A stretch of DNA of 64,000 bases, from assembly GCF_963921235.1 (NCBI RefSeq), contig NC_086108.1, positions 14,880,001 through 14,944,000 on the forward strand, in the 5' to 3' direction. The position numbers were made by a program, and so were the translations under genes. Positions 8,685 through 54,090 of this stretch are shown here, in pieces. The number at the start of each line of letters is the position of its first letter. The stretch's first letter is position 1. This DNA is from Mobula hypostoma (taxonomy: Eukaryota). A model generated the notes under the pieces. That model made no database searches. It worked only from the letters and a program-made list of their open reading frames with translations, and had not been told where the DNA came from.

Positions 8685-9730
8685 CTACACCTGTATATCC
8701 AGGTGGAGAATGTTCATTGAGGTACAGCTGCAGAGATAGGTAGTGAAAGTTACTCCTTGTGGATGGAACATCACCTCTAGAGACAGGTAGTCAAGATTAC
8801 ATAGAAACATAGAAAATAGGTGCAGGAGTAGGCCATTTGGCCCTTCGAGCCTGCACCGCCATTTATTATGATCATGGCTGATCATCCAACTCAGAACCCC
8901 GCCCCTGCCTTCCCTCCATACCCCCTGACCCCTGTAGCCACAAGGGCCACATCTAACTCCCTCTTAAACATAGCCAATGAACTGGCCTCAACAGTTTGCT
9001 GTGGCAGAGAATTCCACAGATTCACCACTCTCTGTGTGAAGAAGTTTTTCCTAATCTCGGTCCTAAAAGGCTTCCCCTCTATCCTCAAACTGTGACCCCT
9101 CGTTCTGGACTTCCCCAACATCGGGAACAATCTTCCTGCATCTAGCCTGTCCAATCCCTTTAGGATCTTATACGTTTCAATCAGATCCCCCCTCAATCTT
9201 CTAAATTCCAACGAGTACAAGCCCAGTTCATCCAGTCTTTCTTCATATGAAAGTCCTGCCATCCCAGGAATCAATCTGGTGAACCTTCTTTGTACTCCCT
9301 CTATGGTAAAGATGTCTTTCCTCAGATTAGGGGACCAAAACGGCACACAATACTCCAGGTGTGGTCTCGCCAAGGCCTTGTACAACTGCAGTAGTACCTC
9401 CCTGCTCCTGTACTCGAATCCTCTCGCTATAAATGCCAGCATACCATTCGCCTTTTTCACCGCCTGCTGTACCTGCATGCCCACTTTCAATGACTGGTGT
9501 ATAATGACACCCAGGTCTCGTTGCACCTCCCCTTTTCCTAATCGGCCACCATTCAGATAATAATCTGTTTTCCCATTTTTGCCACCAAAGTGGATAACTT
9601 CACATTACGCAGTATGGATGGAACTACACCTGTAGAGACAGGTGTGGATGGAACTACACCTGCAGAGACAGGTAGAGAATGTTACTCAGTGTGAATAGAA
9701 TTACGCCTCTAGAGACAGGCAGAGAATATC
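8685..9730. repeat. ~30-bp degenerate tandem repeat interrupted by a CR1
   Basis: Units like TGTGGATGGAACTACACCTGTAGAGACAGG occur on both sides of the CR1 at 8799-9606. Confidence 0.7.
8799..9606 (-). mobile_element. Young 5'-truncated CR1
   Basis: Uninterrupted 211-aa ORF (8891-9526) nearly identical to the C-terminal half of 52560-53795; (TTCTATGT)n tail. Confidence 0.95.
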
Positions 9731-12700
9731 CTGGATGTGTTTCAGACTGTCTAAGTGGAGAGCTTGGAGAGCCTCCTCACTTGGTAATGCTTGGGTGTCA
9801 TTCTAAAAGTCACAACCTCTTTGATGATCTTTAAACTTTGTAGGTCTCTATACAGTATGGATCTAATTCTTTTAGATCAATGACACCCCCCCCTTAGCAC
9901 TATGTATTGATCTGTTGTCTGCACATTTGCAGTTGTCTACGCATGTGCCTTGTTCTCTCTCTCACTGCAATGTGACTACATCAATTAAAGCCATCTCACG
10001 CGTGCATGTTTTTATTTAATCGATATGTAGTTGTGCACAGACACACAAGTTGTTGACAAGTACGAACCTGAATGTCAGGAAATATCATGAACTGCTCCAA
10101 CAGTTATGGGATGAAACAGCATGGAGAAGGTTGTCACAGATGCTAACAAAGGAATGCATGAGTAACTGCCTGCTTAGTACACAGTGAAAGACACACTGAA
10201 TTTAAAGTGAAAATAACATAGTGACAGCTTCAGTTGGGAAAGTTGATGAATTTGATAGTGCTAATGATGGCTGGGGATCATATATCGAGAGAGTGGAACT
10301 GTATTGTAATGCAAACAATGTGGAGGAGCAAAAGAAAGCCCCTACACTTCTTTGTTTAATGGGTGCAAGAGCATACAGTCTCGACACCCCTGCAAACCCA
10401 GCTTGCAATTGTGATAATTTTACAAAATCACTTGAGCCCTAAACTGCAAGTAATAGCTGAGAGATTTAGATGTTACATGATCAGATATGGAGACGTCATG
10501 TGGACCAGATACTGGATGCTCAACCAAAGAACACACCTGCGTCGATTACATCCAACAAGACTGACACATTGCACTCACTGGACTTACCTCTCAGTGATTT
10601 TGTCACTGACAACAATGTGACTCCGGAAACCAAGAATGTTGTCTTAGACAAGACACCTGCCACACCCAGTGCCGCTCCACATTCGATCATGGATGTCAGC
10701 AAGTTAGACTGGCAGGAAGAATCTAAAAAGAATACAGCTTTATAGAGCAGGCGCCAGAGGAGTGGTCATCAGGGCAGAGGGAGTCAGAGTAGGAGGGCTT
10801 TGGTAATAACAGGTCAAGGCAAGGTAAGTTAGCTGTGAAGAATAGGAATAGGAAGTATGTCTGCTGGGCCGGTGTTCTGCACGGAGTGTCGGATATGGGA
10901 TGTCCGGGAGAGTCCCAGCCTCCCGGACAGCCACATGTGCGCCAGGTGTATTGAGCTGCAGCTCCTTAGGGACTGGGTTAGGGAACTGGAGATGCAGCTT
11001 GATGACCTTCGTCTGGTCAGGGACAGTGAGGAGGTGATAGATAGAAGCAATAGGCAAGTAGTCACACCGGGGCCTTGGGAGACAGTTAAGTGGGTAACAG
11101 TCAGGAGAGGGAAGGGCAAGAGTCAGATGCTAGAGAGTATCACTGTGGCTGTCCCCCTTAACAATAAGTACTCCTGTCTGAGTACTATTGGAGGGGACGA
11201 TCTATCTGGGAGAAGTAACAGTGGCCGTGCCTCTGGCACAGAGTTTGGCCCTGTGGCTCAGAAGGGTAGGGAAAGGAAGAGGATGGCAGCAGTGATAGGG
11301 GACTCTATAGTCAGGGGGTCAGACAGGCGATTCCGTGGACGCAGGAAAGAAGCACGGATGGTAGTTTGCCTGCCATGTGCCAGGGTCCGGGATGTTTCTG
11401 ATCGCGTCCAATATCCTGAAGTGGGAAGGTGTAACAGCCAGAGGTTGTGGTACATATTGGTACCAACAACATAGGTAAGGAAAGGGAGGAGGCCCTGAAA
11501 ACAGACTACAGGGAGTTAGGAGAGAAGTTGAGAGAAGCAGAAACTCAAAGGAAGTAATTTTGGGATTACTGCCTGTGCCTCGCAACAGTGAGCATAGGAA
11601 TAGAGTGAGGTGGAGGATAAATGCGTGGCTGAGGGATTGGAGCAGGGGGCAGGGATTCAGATTTCTGGATCATTGGGACCTCTTTTGGGGCAGGAGTGCC
11701 CTGTACAAAAAGGATGAGTTGCACTTGAATCCGAGGGGGATCAATATCCTGGCGGGGAGGTTTGCTAAGGCTACTGGGGAAAGTTTAAACTAGAATTGCT
11801 GGGGGGGGGGTGGGAACTGAACTGAAGAGATGGAGGAAGGGGCAATTGGTTCACAAATTGAGAAAGCTTGTAGACAGTGTGAGAGGGAGGATAGGCAGGT
11901 CAAGTCAAGTCAAGTCATTTTTTATTGTCATTTCAACCATAACTGCTGGTACGGAACATAGTAAAAATGAGACAACATTTTCCAGGACCATGGTGCTACA
12001 TGAAACAATACAAAAACTACACTGAACTACGTAAGAAAAAACACAAAAACTACACTAGACTACAGTCCTATCCAGGACAGCATAAAGTGCACAAAACAGT
12101 GCAGGAATTACAATAAATAATAAACAAGACAATAGGCACAGTAGAGGGCAGTAGGTTGGTGTCAAGCCAGGCTGTGGGTATTGAGGAGTCTGATGACCTG
12201 GGGGAAGAAACTGTTTCATAGTCTAGTCGTGAGAGCCCGAATGCTTTGGTGCCTTTTTCCAGATGGCAGGAGGGAGAAGAGTTTATATGAGGGGTGCGTG
12301 GGGTCCTTCATAATGTTGTTTGCTTTGTGGATGCAGCGTGTGGTGTAAATGTCTGTGATGGCGGGAAGAGAGACCCCGATGATCTTCTCAGCTGACCTCA
12401 TTATCCGCTGCAGGGTCTTGCGATCCGAGATGGTGCAATTTCCGAACCAGGCCGTGATGCAGCTGCTCAAGATGCTCTCAATACAACCTCTGTAGAATGT
12501 GGTGAGGTTGGGGGGGTGGGAGATGAACTTTTCTAAGCCTTCGCAGAAAGTAGAGACGCTGCTGGGCTTTCTTTGTTATGGAACTGGTGTTGAGGGACCA
12601 GGTGAGATTCTCCGCCAGGTGAACACCAAGAAATTTGGTGCTTTTAACGATCTCTATGGAGGAGACATTGATGTTCAGTGGAGAGTAGTCGCTACATGTC

Positions 12701-21240: not shown

Positions 21241-21967
21241 CCCACACCCAGGTGATAAAGGAGGGATAATTCTCACCACACCCTCAGCCCCAGACCAGCT
21301 CAATTAAATAGCTAGACTCAACACAGCAGCTAAACAGATACAGTAACTAGAAGTCCTAATCTATAAATTATTGGGAGAGCAGGGATCAAAAGTGCACTGA
21401 ATGAGTATCAGTGGAAGCAGACTGTTGCTGCAAATACTGCTGAACTGAGCAGAAGAGGATTTTATTTCATCTGGAGTTCGGACTTTTCCTAGAACCTGAT
21501 GTGCTTCTGGAATGCATCAGTCTTCGAAAGTAGTTTTGTAATCTGACTCCTCGATGTTTTGTCACTGATATAACCAGGCTCCGATATTCTGGTGGAGGAC
21601 AGCCTGCTGCTCTTTGAAGGCTGTTTAAACCCAGCGAGTGTTCAGTGTTGCCATCGCACTCCTGATCTGGTGTTGCAGTCTGTGTGTCGGAGCGCACTGC
21701 TGACGGACTCAACCCGCTGCTCCACAACAAGCTTACCACTTATCTGGGCAGATGGAAGTCTGCCCGATCGGTAACTTTCCACAACACTCGATCCTCTCGG
21801 AAGAGGATCGCTACTGCCAAGGTCACAGTACATTGACTCATGTACCCTGGCCCTGGCTCAGTGATATCTTCGTCTGTCACCTACACCAGCTGTACTCGTG
21901 GGACAACTCACCTTAGCCAGTCCACAGCACAAACCCTTCTCCGAGCACGGAGCTCCCTGCTGCTCCT

Positions 21968-22550
21968 CCCACAGTGCCGCACTCCCTCAGTACCACCCTC
22001 CCACAGTGTGACCCTCCCTCAGTACCACCTCTCCCATAGTGCGACTCTCTCTCAGTACCACCCATCCCACAGTGCGACCCTCCCTCAGTACCACCCCTCC
22101 CACAGTGCGACCCTCCCTCAGTACCATCCCTCCCACAGTGTGACCCTCCCTCAGGACCACCCTTCCCACAGTGTGACCCTCCCTCAGTACCACCCCTCCC
22201 ACAGTGAGACCTTCCCTCAGTACCACCCCTCCCACAGTGTGACCCCCCCCTCAGTACCACCCCTCCCACAGGGCGACCCTCCCTCAGTACCATCCCTCCC
22301 ACAGTGTGACCCTCCCTCAGGACCACCCTTCCCACAGTGTGACCCTCCCTCAGTACCACCCCTCCCACAGTGAGACCTTCCCTCAGTACCACCCCTCCCA
22401 CAGTGTGACCCCCCCTCAGTACCACCCCTCCCATAGTGCGACCCTCCCTCAGTACCACTTCTCCCACAGTGTGACCCTCCCTCAGGACCACCCCTCCCAC
22501 AGTGCGACCCCTCCCTCAGTACCACCCTTCCCATAGTGAGACACTCCCTC
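21968..22550. repeat. 33-bp minisatellite, ~17 copies
   Basis: Unit CCCTCCCTCAGTACCACCCCTCCCACAGTGTGA; related monomers at ~5960-6030. Confidence 0.95.
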
Positions 22551-22554
22551 AGAC

Positions 22555-23930
22555 TATCTTTGTCAACCTTACTAATCAAGAACCACAGTTTGAATAAACT
22601 CAATGACCTGGCCTCCACAGCCATCTGTGGCCAAGAATTCCACAGATTCACCAACCTCTAGCTGAAGAAATTCCTCCTCATCTCCGTTTTAAAGGGACAT
22701 CTTTCTATTTTGAGGTAGTATGTACAGGCACAGAGCCATCAAATGCTCCTCAAACTTTGATCCTTTCATTCCTGGGGTCATTCTCATGAACTTCCTCTGA
22801 GCTTTCTCCAATGGCAGCATATCCTTACTCAGATAAGAGGCCCAAAATTGCTCACAACATTCCAAGTGTGATCTGACTAATACCTTATAAAGCCTCAGCA
22901 TTACGTCCTTGCCCTTATATTCTAGTCCACTCAAAATGAATGCTAAGTTAACCTTTAGAGAACCCCGCACAAGACTCTCAAGTCCCTTTGCACCACTGAG
23001 TTTTGAATTTTCATCCCGTTTAGTAAATAATCTACAACTTTAAACCTGCCAAAATGCATGACCATACACTTCCCCACTCTATATTCCATCTACAACTTAT
23101 TTGCTCATTCTCCTTCTGCAGACTTCCTGCTTCCTCAATACTACCTGCCCCTTCACCTATCTTTATACTATCCACAAACTTTGCCACAAAGGCCATCAAT
23201 TCGGTCATCCAAATTATTGATATATAATCTAAAAATAGACCCCTGTGAACATCACCAGTCACCGGCAGCCAACCAGAGAAGGCTCTTTTATCCCCATTCC
23301 TTGCCTCCCTCCAATCAGCCAATGTATATTTCCTGCAATACCATGGGCTCTTAACTTGTTAAGCAGCCTCACATGAGACACCTTGTCAAAGGCCTTCTAA
23401 ATATCCAAGTACACAACATCCACCGATTCTGCTTTGTCTATCCTGCTTGTTATTTCTTCAAAGATTTGTCAGGCAAGATTTTCCCTGAGGAAACCATGCT
23501 GACTGTGGCCTATTTTATCATGTGCCACCAAGTACCCTGAAACCGCATCCTTAATCTTCCCAACCACTGAAGTCAGACTAACTGGAACGTATCTTCAAGC
23601 CTTTTGCCTCTGTCCTTTCTAAAATAATGGAGCGATATTTGCAATTTTCTAGTCCTCCAGAACCATTCCAGAATCAAGTGATTCCTGAAAGATGTCTCCA
23701 CAATCTCTTCAGCCACCTCTTTCAGAACCCTGGGGTTTTGCCCATCTGGTTCTGGTGACTTATCTACCTTCAGACCTTTCAGTTCCCCAAGAATTACTCC
23801 TTAGTAATAGCAACTGCATTCCCTTCTGCCCCCCCCAGACACTTTCAGGTTTCTGACAGACTGCTGGTGAAAATTGGCATAACACTTAATAAGTTTATCT
23901 GCCATTTCCATTTCCCCATTATTATTTCTT
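22555..23930 (-). mobile_element. Decayed CR1 ORF2 fragment
   Basis: LEYKGKDVMLRLYKVLVRSHLECCEQFW and VNLWNS motifs; RT remnants. Confidence 0.85.
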
Positions 23931-28734: not shown

Positions 28735-29597
28735 GGCCAAAAATTTCTATTCAAAAGATTTTACAGAATATCTAAACAAGCCTGATGCATTTTGGAAACA
28801 AGTCCTGTGGACTGATGAAGTTAAAATAGAACTTTTTGGCCACAATGAGCAAAGGTATGTTTGGAGAAAAAAGGGTGCAGAATTTCATGAAAAGAACCTC
28901 CAAATGTTAAGCACAGGGGGTGGATCAATCATGCTTTAAGCTTGTGTTGCAGCCAGTGGCATGGGGAACATTTCACTGGTAGAGGGAAGAATGAGTTCAA
29001 TTAAATACCAGCAAATTCTGAAAGCAAACATCACACCATTTGTAAAAAAGCCGAAGGTGAAAAGAGGATGGCTTCTACAACAGGATAATGAACCTAAGCA
29101 CACCTCAAAATCCACAATGGACTACCTCAAGAGGCACAAGCTGAAGGTTTTGCCATGGCCCTCACAGTCCCCCGACCTGAACATCATCGAGAATCTGTGG
29201 ATAGACCTCAAAAGAGCAGTGCATGCAAGACGGCCCAAGAATCTTACAGAACTAGAAGCCTTTTGCAAGGAAGAATGGGCGAAAATCCCCCAAACAAGAA
29301 TTGAAAGACTCTTAGCTGGCTACAGAAAGCATTTACAAGCTGTGATACTTGCCAAAGGGGATATTACTAAGTACTGACCATGCAGGGTGCCCAAACTTTT
29401 GCTTTGGGCCCTTTCCCTTTTTTGATATTTTGAAACTATAAAAGATGGAAATAAAAAAGTTTTCTTGCTTAAAATATTAAAGAAATGTGTCATCTTTAAC
29501 CTTATGCCTTTTGGAAATCAGTTCATCTTTTACTCGCTTAGCTATTCACAGTAACAGAAATTTTGACCAGGGGTGCCCAAACTTTTGCATGCCACTG
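28735..29597 (+). mobile_element. Tc1 transposon, 3' half (DD34E) with right IR/DR-type TIR
   Basis: WTDE, QDN and SPDLNIIE with 34 residues between D and E; repeated GGGTGCCCAAACTTTTGC at ~29385 and ~29572; ends CACTG followed by TA. Confidence 0.9.
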
Positions 29598-41650: not shown

Positions 41651-41979
41651 TACTGTCATAACCTTATGCTTTTGTAACAATTGGTGATCTCTCTACAAAT
41701 TTATTTCTCTAAATCCCTAGGACTGTTGGGTGGTCTATAATATAACCCCCTTAAAGTGGTCTCACATTTCCTATTCCTCAGGTACACCCATAACACCTCA
41801 CTAGCTGAGTTCTGCAGTCTGTCCTGACAGAGCACTGCAAAGACATTTTCCCTGACGAGTAACTCTATCCCTCCCCCTTTAATCCCTCCTCCTCTGTCTC
41901 ATCAAAAACAACTGAACACCAAAATATTGAGCTGCCAGGTACAGGAGTCTTTGGTGTTGGCCAACATTTGATTAGTGCA

Positions 41980-42202
41980 TGTTGTGTATGTGGCTGGGTT
42001 ACACAACCAGGCTATAAATAAGAATTCTGGAGACGGAAGATAGGTTAACAGGGTTCTTCACTGACTGAAACCGAACTGAACACACACATACAGATCAATA
42101 CGCGCCTAATAACGCATGCTCAATACGTGCCTAATAGCGCATGCAACAACGTGTCCCTACAACATAAAGTGATCTCATATTATACAGTAGCTATCCAGTA
42201 CA
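41980..42202 (-). repeat. 3' LTR
   Basis: Minus strand begins TGTACTG right after AAAAGGGGAGGAG and ends ACACAACA; homologous to 45850-45999. Confidence 0.85.
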
Positions 42203-42456
42203 CTCCTCCCCTTTTATTTTAATGGTGTATCAACTGTTTTTTTGACTGGGACACTACACTAAACAAGTATGTTTACCCTTCACATACAAACGCCTACTAA
42301 TTGTTTACTTAATAACTTAATAATATCAAATTATAACAAAGTAATGTAATAATATTAAATTATAATAAGCTTTTTTTTAAACTTTTGGTCTAAGACCCAT
42401 TTATAACTCAAGTCTCGGGGGGGGGGGTACTCTGCTCACTGTGCCGTACTTCTCTA

Positions 42457-43257
42457 GGTGATGATTATGTACCAGCAGTAACAGAAGAAATAAGTGAAGC
42501 TCTAGCAAAATTAATCATATTTCGCAAGAGGTGTGATGCATTTTTCATAACTTTGGTCTCCATGGTCTGCTTCAAAGATGACTTGCCACCAACAAAAGAA
42601 GCGCTGTCTCTGCTAGTTATTCAAAAGTCGGGGCAATCCAATGACTCACAGAAAGATCAGTACTTTACCAGTAATCTTTCACCGTTGATGAAGCAGTTGA
42701 TCGAAATCCTGTTGTTTGTTCCATTGTTCTTAAGCTGCTGTTAAAGTACAGTTTTGCTGATATTAAGGATTACCTGCAGAGCTATCTGTCTGAAGTTCAA
42801 CAAAAAACAAATCTTGGTCAAGAAGATGAGACTGAACTCTATGCACTGTTTCTGAATTGTTTGGAGGATTCTATGTATGAAGTTGTTCACAATGCAAGAA
42901 AAGACTGCATACCTGGCTGAAGAGGGAGGATTCCTTCAGATGCACATTCAGCACAAGTGTGAAAATACAACAATAGAAACCTTACAGTTTGTTGCCAAAA
43001 TTTCCCTCTGTTTTGATGCTGTTTCCCAACTTCTTTGTGCAAAACAAGACACATTGGCTGAGGATTCAACACATGTACGTGCAAAAGAAACTTCCCTCCA
43101 AAGGATTAAGTGTATGATTCTCAGTGGAGGAAATGATTGGTTCAAGATTTACCTTGAGCGAAAGCTGTTCTGTTTCAGTGGAATTGATTTTGTCCAAGAG
43201 CTTTTAAGGAATGACCAATTTTCATGGATCTCTCCCAAGGAAATTGTTCAGGAGAAG
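42457..43257 (+). pseudogene. RNF213: Intronless fragment of E3 ligase RNF213 (post-RING region), antisense to the element
   Basis: FRKRCDAFFITLVSMVCFKDDLPP, LSP.DEAVDRNPVV.SIVLKLLLKYSF.DIKDYLQ, ELYALFLNCLEDS, EEGGFL and NDWFKIYL.RKL parallel vertebrate RNF213; frameshifts near 42684 and 42895. Confidence 0.88.
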
Positions 43258-43911
43258 ACGGAGATGCTGGTCTTTTCGGAGATTTAAGCTTATTGAGAGT
43301 CGCAGATCTTCCATTATCCGTTCATCTGTTAACAAGTAACTTAACTGCACAGGTGCAGGTTTTCATCTTTTGTCTGTAATTGGAACAGGGTCATTAGGTC
43401 TCCTCCTTAGTCTCCTAATCATTATTGGCTTTACCTCCACAGAATCTCCTGTGAGTTCCATTGTTAGCCTCTCATTCTCAATCATCTTTTTCTTTTCTTC
43501 TAACTCAATCTTTTCATCTTCAAATTCCTTCACTACTGCTTTCTTCTCTTTAATATAATTCCTTTCCACTTGTTCTGTCTCCAGTTGCAGAAAAAGCTCT
43601 GCATTTCATATTCTTTCCTTGTATTGTTGATCCAGTGTCTTCACCCTTTTCTGATACTCCTGCAAAGTGTCTTCCTGTAACTGCTGTAGCTGTCTTTTGA
43701 GGGATGCCAATTTCTCCTGGTACATCTGCTCTTTTATTTCCAGGTAGTCTTCATCATCCTGCTTATTGGCAATATCCGTCTCCCTTGCATCCTCTGTACC
43801 TTCATCTGAGTCACGGCTACGGATACTGTGTTTGTCCTCATCGTCGACGTTGTCTAGCTCCTCCTCATTGTTGTAATAGCCAACAATGGGTGAGAGGAGA
43901 GCTGCGGACAT
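43245..43911 (-). pseudogene. SUDS3: Intronless 5' part of Sin3-HDAC corepressor subunit SDS3
   Basis: MSAALL...[23 protein letters not shown]...[22 protein letters not shown]...[13 protein letters not shown]...KSPKRPASPSSPE; two TGA stops, one frameshift, 8-codon deletion. Confidence 0.95.
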
Positions 43912-43933
43912 CTTCCCCGCTGAGCTGCCCTCC

Positions 43934-45115
43934 TTTGTTGACACATCTATTGCATTGATGGTGTACCAATCCAACTGGATTTTCCTGAGCCATTCACGTC
44001 CTAGCAACGGTGATCCTCCGTTTTTCAGTACATAGAGGTTCAGCTGCTGTGTTTTGTCTCTGTAGGTCACTGACACTTTAATTTTACCTTTGGGATGCAC
44101 TTTCTGTCCTGTGTAAGTCTTTAGTAGTAGTTTAGTTCGTTTCAGAGGCATGTGAGAAAACAGTCATTTGTAGTCATGTACAGAGATTGCTGTTAAAACT
44201 GAGCCTGTGTCCAACTCCATTTTCAGTCTCACGCCTGCCACTTGTGGAGTGATCCATATTACTCTTTGATCATCTGTCTCTTTCACACTGTGAGGTTGCA
44301 GACAAGACAATTCACCTTTGTCTGAGTCATTTTCATCAGAATTGCTTTCTTTCATTTTGTGCACATTGTTGTATTTTCCTTTCTGGGGTTTCTTGTTTCT
44401 CTGTATTTTGTCCTTTTTCTGCTGTTTACTAGCTTTGCATACTCTGCCAATGTGGCCCTGTTTGCCACAGTTTCTGCATTCTTTATCTTTAACCACAATC
44501 ATCAGGGTCATGTGACCTGTTCCCACAACAGTAACATTTCTTTCCTTCATTTCTGTTTAGTGACATTTTATTTGTGGCATATTCCAGAGATTTTTGTTGT
44601 ATCTCGGAAGCACCTCGTGCGGCTGTTTCCATTGATTTTGCAATGTTCAGCGCCTTCTCTAACGTAAGGTCCCTTTCACACAGAAGCTTCTTCTGTGTGG
44701 TTTCACAGTGCATGCCACACACTAACTTGTCCCTCATTGCGTCCGATAGACCCGCTCCAAATTGACAATGCTCGGATAATTTGCACAATTCAGCACAATA
44801 TTCAGAAATGCTTTCATTTTTGCCCTGATTCCGATTGTGAAATTTAAATCTTTCAGCAATGACCTGTAGTTTGGGGTGTAAATGCTGTTGGAGAGTGTCT
44901 ACTATTTGCTTGAACGTTTTGTCAGCTGGCTTTTCAGGGGTTAACAAGCTCCATAGCAGCCCGTATGTTTTTGCTTCCATAATACTGAGTAAGATGCTGG
45001 CTTTCTTTTCATCATTAACATCGTTAGCATCACAATATAACTTCAGTCTTTCAATGTAAGTTGCCCAGTTTTCAATGCTACTATCAAATGCTGTAATTGT
45101 TCCAATCATCGCCAT
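43934..45115 (-). pseudogene. Gypsy/Mag gag, zinc knuckles and aspartic protease
   Basis: YIERLKLYCDAN...VIAERFKF..RNQ, RDKLVCG, CYCCG..SH..DDC, CRNCGKQGHIGRVC, MELDTGS and LLGREWL; one frameshift ~44490 and a TGA at 44164. Confidence 0.92.
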
Positions 45116-45383
45116 CTTTGTTATGTTAATTTAGTCCCGTTCTCCCTTTTTTTTTGACTCACATGACCTTTTTGCTAGCTCCACGAGTGCACTCCATCTA
45201 GATGTGTGCATGTCACTCCTTTTTATCTCCCTTCTGGGGCAGGCAGACCCTCAGCCCGGGGGTCAGCGCTGGCTGTTGTCTCGCCTGAACTCACTGCAGC
45301 TCCGACTGTGTCTCATGGTCTCCCGACGTTCCCGACCTGCGGCTGTGCTTCCGTTTCCTTTCGGACTCGTGGCCTCGCTCTGC

Positions 45384-45832
45384 CTTGGCTCGTACCTTGT
45401 GCTCTTCATACTCATTCTGAATTTTCTTTGGCCTTTTCTTGTTCAGAATTTCTTCCTCTTCAGGTGGCAGTTTGGCACCCTTCTTCCGACCAAGTGGAAG
45501 GGCAAAGTGAGATTCATACCACTGTCTGAACAATGAGTTCTTTACTAATGTTTTTGTCCTGACCAATTCATTGTTGGAAGCATTGTAAACTACATCAATG
45601 ATCCTGGTCTTCCGTGTACAATATTCGGAACCCCAGGAGTAGTTTCCTGCATCCAACCTCAAAGGGCGATTTTTTTATTTCCACCATGGACTCTCACTGT
45701 GTGGATACGACATGGTCCAATCTTTGTATTTGCAGGAGGACGTTCAAGTTCATATTTTCTCTTTTTATGATATGGCTTCCTTTTACCTCCAGTCTTGCAG
45801 TGTTTGTGCCAATTATTCCAGGACATACCTAT
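45384..45832 (-). pseudogene. RPS8: Intronless 5' two-thirds of 40S ribosomal protein S8
   Basis: [69 protein letters not shown] and [19 protein letters not shown]; start codon reads ATA, frameshift ~45665, short internal deletion. Confidence 0.97.
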
Positions 45833-45849
45833 TCTCAGGTTTCGGCCAC

Positions 45850-45999
45850 TTACACAACCAAGAGGCAAGTTAACAGGGCTCTTTACTGTCCGAAACCGAA
45901 CTGAACACACGCATACCGATCAATACGCGCCTAATAATGCATGCAACGTGTCCCTACAACATAAAGTAGTCCCATATTATACAGTAGCTATACAGTACA
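45850..45999 (-). repeat. 5' LTR, truncated at its inner end
   Basis: Matches 41999-42202 with indels; lacks the final ~20 nt and any PBS, and abuts the RPS8 leader. Confidence 0.85.
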
Positions 46000-48509
46000 G
46001 TGCGGTTTGTGGATTGGTCTCACTTTTAGAGGAGTGCAGTTCATGTCATGTTTTTTTCTGACTTCCAGTTACTCCTCCTTTATTGTCATTTTGTGCGATG
46101 TTGATCAGGGCGTTCTGGATCTGCAGCTTGCAGTCAACAAAAGGAGACAGCGCTAAATTGAACTGAACTGAACCAAACTGAGCTTTCCTAGACTGCTTCC
46201 AGGCTGTGCAGTTATGTTTAATATTCTGGCGTTTGGCGTTCGTGTGATTTGTTCTTTTTTTATGTGTGTGTTGGGTGTTTGATGTTTTCTTTGAGTGGAT
46301 TCCATGCTGGCTGTCTGTGAGATGACAGGTCTCAGAGTTGTATTCTTCATACATACTTTGATAATAAATGTACTTTGGATCTTTGAATCTTTCAATCTTT
46401 GGCCCATGCCTGAGCTCATCTGCCTTTGCTGCAATACTTCTTGCATTGCACTATTCAGAAGATTAATCGCACCATGCTCAATCTTTTGATTCCTGACTTT
46501 GTCTGAGGTCTTAACAACATCTGTCTGCACAACCTCTGCACTAATTGTTCTGGCACTCTGGTTCACATCCCCCTGCAATTCTGATTTAACCCCCCTCCTG
46601 CCAGGCAGTACTAGCAAACCTTCCTGCCAGGATATTAGTTTAGGTGCAAATCGTCCCTTCTGTACAAGTCCCACCTTCCATGGAAGCAGGGATTCCCACA
46701 CTGGGGTTCACAGACCCCTCGTTAATGGTGAGGGTCCACGGCATAACAAAAGGCTGGGAACCCTTGCCAGGAAGAGAGCCCAATGATCCAAAAATATGAA
46801 GACCTCGCTCCTTCACCAACTCTTTATCCACATGTTAAACTGTATGACCTTCCTATTTTTGGTGGCACTAACACATGGTACAGATTGCAATCCCAAGATC
46901 ACAACCCTGGAGGTCCTGCCCTTTAACTTAGCACCTAACTCCCTGAACCTACTTTGCAGGATCTCGTCACTCTTCCTATCTGAGTCATTGGTAGCTACAT
47001 GGGCCATGACCTCTGGCTCACCCTCCCACTTATGAATGCCAAGGACTTGATCCAAGACGTCCCGGACACTGGCACCTGGGAGGCAACATACCATTAGGAA
47101 ATCTCATTCTCATCCACAGAACCTCCTTTTTGTTCCCCTAACTAACAAATCCCCTAACACCACGGTTAGCCTCTTCTCCCCCACCCCCCACTTCCCTTCT
47201 GAATCACAGAGCCAGCCTCAGTGCCAGAGACCTGATCAATGTGTCTTTCCTCTGCTAGGTCATTCCCCCTCCAACAGTATCCAAAGTGGTGTACTTGTTG
47301 AGGGGGATGGCTACAACAGTACTCTGCACTGGTGTTTAAACCCTTTTCCCTTCCTGACTGTTACCCAATTTCCTGCACCCTGCACCATGGATGTAATTAC
47401 CTCTCTATATGTCCTATCTATCACCCCCTTAGCCTCCTGAATTATCCAGAGATCATCCAATTCCAGCTCCAACTCCTTAATTCAGAATGTTAGAAGCTGC
47501 AGCTGGATGCACTTCTTGCAGGTGAAGTTGTATAATGGGAAAATTATTCCCATTATATTTCAAAATCTTGGCTACAGCAGCCAATCAATAACAGTAGCAT
47601 ACAGAACGTCATTTCATCCTTGATGGGTCACTTTTTAATGTCACAAGTTCATCCCCCTGCTCTGCATGTCAAACAGTGTGTCCACAAAGGAATCATTGCT
47701 TCACTCTTTTGGCCATTGGCACATTCCACGTTTGGAAAAATACTGCGATCACAAGTCAGGAGTAATTCTGGGTGTTGTGGAAAAATACCTGAGCCAAAAG
47801 CCTCCTGTGTTTCTCATTATCATCACAGACTTATCAAAGTTTGATAAGAACCCTAGCTTTAGAAGGAAGAAACAACTCCCCCTGCCTCACACACTCTGTA
47901 CATTACAACTGTTCGTGCAAAGACTGTGCACATCAATACTGCAGACACACCAGATATTCTGCTGTTACTATCATAGGCTAGGGAAACAGGAAAACTTTCC
48001 TATACTTTTTTGAAATACCCCATCAATATTCAACAGCCCTTTTGGTTTGTCATTCTGCCTGAAAGAGCACAGCTCCTTGCTGTCAAATGCCAAGTGTCAT
48101 TTTAAATCTGTAGCTTGAGAGCACTGAGTCTCCATGGTGTCCGGGTGGAACCATCTCCCTTGCACAAGATGACGGTGTCAGCCTTTCCCTATCATTCCAA
48201 CTCAATGTCTCTGCCCTTTGGCATTTAATTCACAGTTTTAATGGGAGTGCTATTCATTAATCAGCAGAGAAAAATCTCATCTAATCTTTTGAATTTAGTG
48301 GATAAGCACAATAAAAAGCTGAATGATAATTGATAAGACTGTACACTATTTCAAGAAACAGTTGCAGTGAAGTTTATTCCATGTATTGGTCAGGCTCAGT
48401 TACAGTCTACAAAGAACACATTCAGCCCCAGCATTCAATCAAATGCCATCGTGTTTATTTCTCCCATGTAATCCAATCACCTGTCAAAATAAAGTTGAAA
48501 TAAAAGTCA

Positions 48510-52374: not shown

Positions 52375-54090
52375 CATCGCGCAGGGTGGAGATACGTCTC
52401 TACCAAAGGAGGTGTAAGGCAGTCGTTCCCTCCGCTAGCCTGCAGGTTACTCTTGGGCAAGGTGTAGCACCTGCTTAGCCCCTTCCCCCCTCCTCCTTGA
52501 TCAGGGTCACATGAAGCCATAGGAGCAGGCGGTGAATGGTCGTATGAGTAACAGCACATTTGGAAAGCGGTGAAATGATCGGACAAAGTCAGCATGGATT
52601 TGTGAAAGGAAAATCATGTCTGACGAATCTCATAGAATTTTTTGAGGATGTAACTAGTAGAGTGGATAGGGGAGAACCAGTGGATGTGGTATATTTGGAT
52701 TTTCAAAAGGCTTTTGACAAGGTCCCACACAGGAGATTAGTGTGCAAACTTAAAGCACACGGTATTGGGGGTAAGGTATTGGTGTGGGTGGAGAATTGGT
52801 TAGCAGACAGGAAGCAAAGAGTGGGAATAAACGGGACCTTTTCAGAATGGCAGGCGGTGACAAGTGGGGTACCGCAAGGCTCAGTGCTGGGACCCCAGTT
52901 GTTTACAATATATATTAATGACTTGGATGAGGGAATTAAATGCAGCATCTCCAAGTTTGCGGATGACACGAAGCTGGGTGGCAGTGTTAGCAGTGAGGAG
53001 GATGCTAAGAGGATGCAGAGTGACTTGGATAGGTTGGGTGAGTGGGCAAACTCATGGCAGATGAAATTTAATGTGGATAAATGTGACGTTATCCACTTTG
53101 GTGGCAAAAATAGGAAAACAGATTATTATCTGAATGGTGGCCGATTAGGAAAAGGGGAGGTGCAACGAGACCTGGGTGTCATTATACACCAGTCATTGAA
53201 AGTGGGCATGCAGGTACAGCAGGCGGTGAAAAAGGCGAATGGTATGCTGGCATTTATAGCGAGAGGATTTGAGTACAGGAGCAGGGAGGTACTACTGCAG
53301 TTATACAAGGCCTTGGTGAGACCACACCTGGAGTATTGTGTGCAGTTTTGGTCCCCTAATCTGAGGAAAGACATCTTTGCCATAGAGGGAGTACAAAGAA
53401 GGTTCACCAGATTGATTCCTGGGATGGCAGGACTTTCATATGAAGAAACACTGAATGAACTGGGCTTGTACTCGTTGGAATTTAGAAGATTGAGGGGGGA
53501 TCTGATTGAAACGTATAAGATCCTAAAGGGATTGGACAGGCTAGATGCAGGAAGATTGTTCCCAATGTTGGGGAAGTCCAGAACGAGGGGTCACAGTTTG
53601 AGGATAGAGGGGAAGCCTTTTAGGACCGAGATTAGGAAAAACTTCTTCACACAGAGAGTGGTGAATCTGTGGAATTCTCTGCCACAGCAAACTGTTGAGG
53701 CCAGTTCATTGGTTATGTTTAAGAGGGAGTTAGATATGGCCCTTGTGGCTACGGGGGTCAGGGGGTATGGAGGGAAGGCTGGGGCGGGGTTCTGAGTTGG
53801 ATGATCAGCCATGATCATAATAAATGGCGGTGCAGGCTCGAAGGGCCGAATGGCCTACTCCTGCACCTATTTTCTATGTTTCTATGTTTCTATCTCACAA
53901 GTCCCGGTCAGGCGACCACTGAAGCCAGGCAGACAATTTCTGGAGTATTAATAATGGCTGGGGTCACCCATCTTGTAAAGACTCTGCCCAGAAGAAGGCA
54001 ATGGAAAACCACTTCTGAGGAGAAGTTTGTCAAGAACAATCATGGTCATGGAAAGACCATGACCACCCACGTCATACGACACAGTACAAA
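52375..54090 (+). mobile_element. SINE-like repeat split by a young CR1
   Basis: Segments 52375-52555 and 53894-54090 appear to be one non-coding unit once the CR1 is removed. Confidence 0.45.
52555..53893 (+). mobile_element. Young 5'-truncated CR1 with uninterrupted 411-aa RT ORF
   Basis: QHGFVKG, YLDFQKAFD, SGVPQGSVLGP and FADDTK motifs; no stops in 52560-53795; (TTCTATGT)n tail. Confidence 0.95.

Follow-up and report, generated by a model that had tools for sequence, protein, structure and literature searches.

A Gag-protease-SUDS3 element of rays is a probable, secondarily amplified LTR-mediated retrocopy

SUDS3 (SDS3) is a subunit of the Sin3/HDAC corepressor. On the minus strand of a 64,000-nucleotide stretch of the Mobula hypostoma genome (contig NC_086108.1, positions 14,880,001 to 14,944,000; hereafter the window, numbered from its first letter), a copy of SUDS3 follows the protease of an LTR retrotransposon in the same reading frame, raising the question of how a cellular transcript came to occupy this place and whether the element profits from it. 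The first-pass annotation, which drew attention to the locus, proposed that the ancestral copy could have encoded a polyprotein carrying a truncated corepressor subunit. Its observation was confirmed and its interpretation was in part supported. The frame from 44556 to 43244 (minus strand) is an unbroken run through a zinc knuckle, the protease (DTG) and the peptide EGSSAGK into MSAALL, whose ATG lies at 43911, and contains the Pfam domains zf-CCHC, gag-asp_proteas and Sds3. Three in-frame TGA stops were found where they had been reported, at 44166-44164, 43608-43606 and 43365-43363. The gag sequence (45115 to 44495) occupies a different frame; the single frameshift described near 44490 is real, but a second one, at about 43299-43300 inside SUDS3, had been missed.

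To place this stretch, we delimited the entire element, a non-autonomous member of Ty3/Gypsy that measures 4.0 kb, lies on the minus strand and has the Gag-protease-SUDS3 stretch as its middle. It is bounded by a short target-site duplication (GTGCG at 46000-46004 versus GTGCA at 41975-41979, 4/5 identical, with the mismatch at a CpG). Alignment of the LTR pair gave a 3′ LTR (TG...CA) at 41980-42202 and a 5′ LTR at 45850-45999 that lacks its 3′ end and is identical to the former at 137/150 aligned bases, with 13 mismatches and 3 indels. Thirteen purines (42203-42215) immediately ahead of the 3′ LTR form a polypurine tract. The leader preceding gag (45116-45379) had no coding match and is covered by many diverged contigs. 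The gag region (44495-45115), of the K02A2.6-like type and open up to the break, was 58-72% identical to gag of 11 relatives (81 matches in total), and the region holding the second zinc knuckle and the aspartic protease (43924-44493), which ends in the protease-RT linker, had 47-56% identity to the same relatives, which are Ty3/Gypsy elements of fishes. All 11 match the gag and knuckle-protease frames as a single chain across 44495/44493, and the frameshift in the zinc-knuckle region (44490-44495) is private. Paired TG...CA LTRs, a purine tract, a short target duplication and Gypsy gag and protease in an element that lacks RT identify it as non-autonomous Ty3/Gypsy. In full-length relatives, RT, RNase H and integrase lie in the single ORF. 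Here, the element sequence breaks off about 12 residues beyond the motif that ends the protease and is not taken up again until the last ~10 pol codons, the integrase tail with its stop (42401-42433; PPPRLEL-stop versus PPKRL[DE]L at the ends of relatives, recognized by eye, with no tblastn hit), and the gap left by RT, RNase H and integrase is filled by SUDS3 and an antisense fragment of RNF213.

The SUDS3 copy (43248-43930, minus strand) comprises a short leader and residues 1 to ~232, is 85% identical to ray SUDS3, and is collinear with it over residues 1-233 without introns. The tblastn matches (residues 1-212 and 213-233) lie in two frames, and this switch at residue 212/213, together with an indel row, places the second frameshift at ~43299-43300, a shift that throws the final ~17 codons of SUDS3 out of frame. 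Eight residues (within 136-145) are missing owing to a 24-base deletion at 43501, unnoticed in the first-pass annotation, which sits between two in-frame Glu-Leu repeats and falls inside the SUDS3 stretch solved as PDB 4zqa. We take 4zqa to be the SUDS3 dimerisation coil and, likewise, PDB 2n2h to be its Sin3-binding segment. Beyond residue ~241, SUDS3 had no match anywhere in the window; in the examined copy its last third is replaced by the RNF213 fragment (42427-43247, plus strand, antisense to the element), which corresponds to approximately human residues 4070-4353 in three frames (PDB RNF213, E 2e-10, 1e-18 and 5e-15). In the RNF213-bearing sublineage, the coil and the segment that matches 2n2h are still present, and the loss is confined to the capped Tudor domain at the C-terminus, a domain described in PMC8800102.

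A third captured mRNA explains why this copy is immobile. The sequence at 45380-45850 stands in for the 5′ LTR end and the primer site, and consists of a spliced RPS8 fragment (45380-45849, minus strand, 3′ border approximate) with Pfam Ribosomal_S8e in two frames and a match to PDB eS8 at E 1e-45. The fragment runs from the start region to about residue 150-158, is frameshifted, carries a 7-residue deletion, and is 5′-complete and 3′-truncated, with no poly(A) seen. The RPS8-LTR shape would result if a minus strand had terminated at the 5′ end of RPS8 and the second strand transfer had then been aberrant. No tRNA primer-binding site follows the 5′ LTR of the examined copy, whose end joins RPS8 directly, and a search for tRNA genes found none. 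Because RPS8 replaces both the 5′ LTR end and the primer site, this copy could not be copied again; it is a dead end, but the Gag-protease-SUDS3 family need not be. Inspection by eye of the SUDS3, RNF213 and RPS8 borders revealed neither poly(A) nor target duplications around the inserts, the 3′ end of SUDS3 being missing here.

To look for other copies, we aligned four public runs on positions 43150-45420: X1 and X6 are DNA from two organisms, and X5 and X11 were guessed to be RNA. The two DNA runs gave 3783 and 4531 contigs and the two guessed RNA runs 270 and 183, and a single variant at one site was carried by up to 71-72 contigs, although summed contig depth does not equal copy number. 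Depth was lower over the RNF213 and RPS8 bins, where it is likewise no measure of copy number, and one X6 contig reaches just 11-27 letters into the RPS8 join. In the DNA runs, 'from_end' values of 59-78 beside the protease/SUDS3 junction fit bridging contigs without proving bridging, and among the listed contigs of the guessed RNA runs none bridges it with 31 letters on each side.

The contigs also revealed how the two parents meet. On the protease side, five X1 contigs match the element as far as 43924 and diverge into other sequence beyond it (agreement 0.72); read by hand in the protease frame, their loose letters give the RLSQ motif that leads relatives into RT. Record 9 of X11 fits SUDS3 up to 43930, with 223 unlike letters beyond. 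Together, the contigs ending at 43924 and the record reaching 43930 indicate that about 7 bases (43924-43930) fit both parents, an overlap that rests on five contigs and one record and concerns the protease/SUDS3 join only. The first-pass annotation had cut the junction at 43934; instead, the overlap makes EGS common to both parents, and a shark SUDS3 model has EGGLAGK ahead of its start. Microsimilarity of this kind at a join is described as a mark of template switching in parts of Tan et al. (2016; PMC5131818), and the protease/SUDS3 join, at 43924-43930, displays it. Since the SUDS3 side is an untranslated leader, the match of frames is a one-in-three outcome, the same odds that had been given for a chance fusion. 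The RT-side sequence of the five X1 contigs past 43924 also points to close RT-bearing relatives, likely helpers, in organism A.

We then asked what the founder of the family looked like. The 8-residue deletion recurs in seven proteins, encoded by six SDS3-like gene models of Mobula birostris, M. hypostoma and Hypanus sabinus; among 341 proteins compared, these 7, all from Mobula or Hypanus, were the only ones with it besides the window's own, and 211 keep the residues. The 24 deleted letters had depth 0 in X1, X6 and X5 and were present only in record 8 of X11, which continues as SUDS3 past 43248 and which we read as a probable parental SUDS3 mRNA, possibly of a different species. Five of the sister proteins extend to or near the SUDS3 C-terminus, which argues that the founder had a near full-length SUDS3 and that the truncation here is secondary. 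P0198, a Hemitrygon akajei model, has its gag start and its in-frame junction in common with the examined copy, followed by the start of SUDS3, a piece of YBX1 and an antisense RNF213 tail, so that the in-frame junction is seen in a fourth ray species. Indel rows at ~44490, found in 8-9 contigs for each DNA run, show that most copies lack the break. The two SUDS3 stops are missing from 67-81% of summed depth, and between 43501 and 44490 no indel reaches 35%. Given the private break, the minority stops, the lack of a common indel, the P0198 junction and the single-ORF relatives, a single open Gag-protease-SUDS3 frame is very likely for the founder, as judged from its copies rather than from an assembly. 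The locus is therefore not the single dead-on-arrival copy against which the first-pass annotation had proposed a check, and its polyprotein is supported as a very likely open fusion in the founder, but the truncation of SUDS3 is limited to the RNF213-bearing sublineage.

An intact fusion protein was absent from the best 120 of 180 matches to a protease-SUDS3 query and from the best 150 of 5289 matches, and 0/81 gag matches contained one; an Sds3 domain was present in 0/81 gag relatives, P0198 being the sole chimeric model. These absences are weak evidence. One X5 contig (RNA by guess, DNA possible) is identical to the examined copy over 166 letters (43747-43912, depth 16), and it matches that copy at six sites where most copies differ. 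X5 also contains a deletion-type contig with 3 differences and X11 a parent-like contig, DNA being possible in both runs.

The captured mRNAs vary among copies. In P0122, a Mobula birostris model, FKQNSFR, which matches the antisense RNF213 stretch, occurs at the same join with SUDS3 sequence on either side, and from this model RNF213 seems to have been inserted into a full-length SUDS3 in other copies. In P0198, most of SUDS3 has given way to the YBX1 piece, a fourth captured mRNA annotated as 'YBX1-like', which precedes the antisense RNF213.

To determine whether SUDS3 had been maintained by selection, we compared the examined copy with X11 record 8 and found 19 differences in 535 bases besides gaps. 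Seventeen of these are listed: 15 in changed codons (2 of them stops) and 2 silent; of the other two, one must be changed codon 179 and one may be of either kind, so that at least 16/19 alter the protein. With at most 3 silent differences of 19, where 27-35% would be expected to be silent, dN/dS for the SUDS3 part is ~2, with record 8 taken as the parental mRNA of a possibly different species. This value is not significantly above 1 (P 0.06-0.2), but 0.5 is rejected (P ≤0.014), as is 0.3 (P ≤5e-4). All 17 listed differences also set the examined copy apart from the family majority, and the ratio therefore reflects the decay since insertion, a phase in which any transposon copy evolves neutrally. 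The active lineage, from capture to spread, acquired at most 2 substitutions and the 24-base deletion in the 535 bases, too few for a selection test. Divergence from the parent (3.6%) is close to half the LTR divergence (4.3%), indicating that insertion came soon after capture.

The pattern of changes was that of decay. Parental SUDS3 proteins of Mobula and Pristis show 0 differences in 176 residues, and the examined copy differs from the parent at 19/168. Seven copies have 11-20 differences each, of which 78 are private, 13 common to two and 1 common to five, giving a star shape, and the few shared changes all alter residues that are invariant in parents. For the DNA contigs we used 34 coding-frame variant rows out of 40 listed among 186, leaving out 6 leader or RNF213 rows. 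In these listed rows, the examined copy's letter was found at a median of 17% and 32% of depth at the 8 CpG-type sites, versus 0.3-0.4% at the 26 others; the SUDS3 stop letters are kept by 19-33% of depth, and the letters at the other 6 CpG-type sites by 1-62%. The stops fall within the range of CpG sites, so nonsense decay is not depleted. A strand bias of changes (25 versus 7) was not significant given base composition (P 0.08). The earlier proposal that the stops arose by CGA-to-TGA decay fits the two in SUDS3, which behave like CpG-type sites and stand opposite Arg in the parental SUDS3 proteins. It is not confirmed for the one in the protease (44166-44164), where Arg was found in 0/10 relatives inspected and which is absent from the 40 listed variant rows. 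Purifying selection on the SUDS3 part was not detected, for the time after insertion only. The SUDS3 part thus decayed after insertion without purifying selection and is probably a passenger.

We consider it probable, at about 0.82, that SUDS3 mRNA was captured by a template switch, came to be in frame by chance, was amplified in trans, and has been a neutrally decaying passenger. A single-ORF Ty3/Gypsy element would have packaged spliced SUDS3 mRNA, and its reverse transcriptase would have switched template where the protease-RT linker and the SUDS3 leader share ~7 bases of microhomology. A return to the element at the integrase tail would account for the replacement of RT, RNase H and integrase seen in its structure. 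The chance in-frame join would have given a founder frame of ~400 residues of Gag-protease plus ~310 of SUDS3, an estimate drawn from the copies and not from an assembly. The chimera, which kept LTRs, leader and purine tract, was presumably copied in trans by autonomous relatives; the 24 SUDS3 bases would have been lost early, and wide spread would have preceded the split of devil rays and whiptail stingrays. One sublineage would then have acquired antisense RNF213, and the examined copy would also have acquired RPS8 in place of the primer site, ending its movement. Some points may speak against a passenger: two events in the active lineage, the junction and the 24-base deletion, both kept the frame (~1 in 9 by plain chance), five sister models have a long open SUDS3, and the family has been greatly successful. 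The frame-keeping deletion is less striking because it falls between in-frame Glu-Leu repeats.

The first-pass annotation had raised a counter-silencing role as speculation. In the form considered here, the active element would translate Gag-protease-SUDS3, and a coil-shortened SUDS3 released by the protease would poison or divert Sin3/HDAC in a dominant-negative manner, helping the family to multiply, the copies decaying later. The in-frame join is family-wide and lies just past the protease, at the predicted cleavage site that would normally free RT; the in-frame deletion falls within the 4zqa stretch; the RNF213 sublineage loses the capped Tudor domain only, keeping the coil and the 2n2h-matching segment; and cargo that was useful would still be expected to leave neutral terminal branches. 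Nevertheless, we found no support for this role and regard it as improbable. No sign of constraint appeared anywhere: dN/dS of the examined copy is not below 1, its stops recur like CpG decay, and shared changes hit parent-invariant residues. The family also took up pieces of RNF213 (antisense), RPS8 and YBX1, showing that capture needs no benefit. A trans-acting product would aid all copies and elements alike, so that selection on it would probably be weak, and none of the 81+120+150 matches listed is an intact fusion, although this is weak evidence.

There is a slim chance that SUDS3 arrived as a passenger and that some other copies were later kept by the host as LTR-driven SUDS3-like retrogenes, as the annotated open Mobula models of 292-480 residues (P0005-P0008 and P0134) might suggest. 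These models, however, differ from the parent at 11-20/168 residues, like the broken examined copy (19/168); a few open frames are expected by chance among many copies, on a rough estimate; and gene models can step over breaks. That a LINE-made processed pseudogene of SUDS3 inserted into a Gypsy copy, with a local or recurrent fusion, is very improbable: CR1-type LINE remains are abundant in the window, and passages of a preprint (10.64898/2026.06.26.734816) tie retrocopy numbers in cartilaginous fishes to non-LTR elements, but pol is replaced and not interrupted, neither poly(A) nor an inner target duplication was seen, and the junction shared with Hemitrygon akajei, the common 24-base deletion and the microhomology at the join largely refute it.

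Capture of a host transcript followed by amplification has parallels in known systems. In acutely transforming retroviruses of the gag-onc type, replication genes are replaced by a spliced host gene and copying depends on a helper. As in these viruses, the host gene is in frame with gag and copying would be helper-dependent; unlike them, in which the host frame is selected, the ray element has no env, is not infectious as far as seen, and shows no selection in sequence tests. The single-ORF K02A2.6-like fish Ty3/Gypsy elements (P0344, P0347 and others) share its gag, knuckle-protease and pol tail, but carry the RT, RNase H and integrase that it lacks. Tan et al. described animal LTR-mediated retrocopies, or pseudo-LTR retrotransposons, and according to sections of that paper (PMC5131818) they carry spliced host sequence flanked by non-contiguous portions of a single LTR element, with microsimilarity at switch points, several parental genes per locus, secondary retroposition and a sense in-frame product. 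The ray locus likewise has intronless host sequence between discontinuous LTR-element parts (preceded by gag-protease and followed by the pol tail, purine tract and LTR), and its P0198 junction, common deletion and own target duplication indicate secondary retroposition with common switch points. By the features tested, the Gag-protease-SUDS3 element is an LTR-mediated retrocopy, secondarily amplified. The cases in those sections have few copies, whereas the ray family spans at least four species with very many copies, and cartilaginous fishes are absent from the species lists there. Maize Bs1, as presented in the same source, is similarly an LTR element with parts of three host genes whose copies have common switch points; it differs in its number of copies, 1-5, and in the evidence that its hybrid protein is functional, no constraint being seen here. 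In the founder, the host part was very likely in frame with element proteins, as in a functional transduced gene of the Bs1 or gag-onc kind, but no purifying selection on it was detected for the time after insertion.

A literature search found no description of a Gag-protease-SUDS3 family, although the supplements of two preprints may list loci; SUDS3 has 0 mentions in PMC13320880. New here are the family-wide in-frame junction, its microhomology, the cross-species common deletion and the selection numbers. The preprint 10.64898/2026.06.26.734816 ranks SUDS3 with the leading parents of retrocopies in cartilaginous fishes, in passages that contain no LTR explanation; amplification of one captured copy, and not repeated LINE retroposition or host selection, would explain this rank. 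Among vertebrates, the family is also a large case of LTR capture in which further mRNAs were taken up in series (RNF213, RPS8, YBX1), and it cautions that ray genes bearing the annotation 'SDS3-like' are cargo of a transposon. Counter-silencing, if true, would make it a vertebrate LTR element with a stolen corepressor subunit, a new anti-silencing strategy that would explain amplification across rays.

In the surroundings of the element, 100 of the 128 long frames that flank it were searched with Pfam, which detected no host exon. A stretch at 48480-48370 (minus strand), on the element's own strand and some 2.4 kb upstream of it, has the look of a last exon (splice acceptor, 13 codons, stop and AATAAA), and transcription reading through from this candidate could enter the element. 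The window also contains a second, more distant Gypsy gag remnant at 10221-10602 (plus strand; tblastn E 1e-16), a DDE_3 transposase remnant at 28940-29374 (plus strand) and a 33-base tandem array at 21897-22700. An 808-base inverted pair with 98% identity (8799-9606 and 53080-53887) overlaps an RT frame at 52548-53792 and represents young LINE copies.
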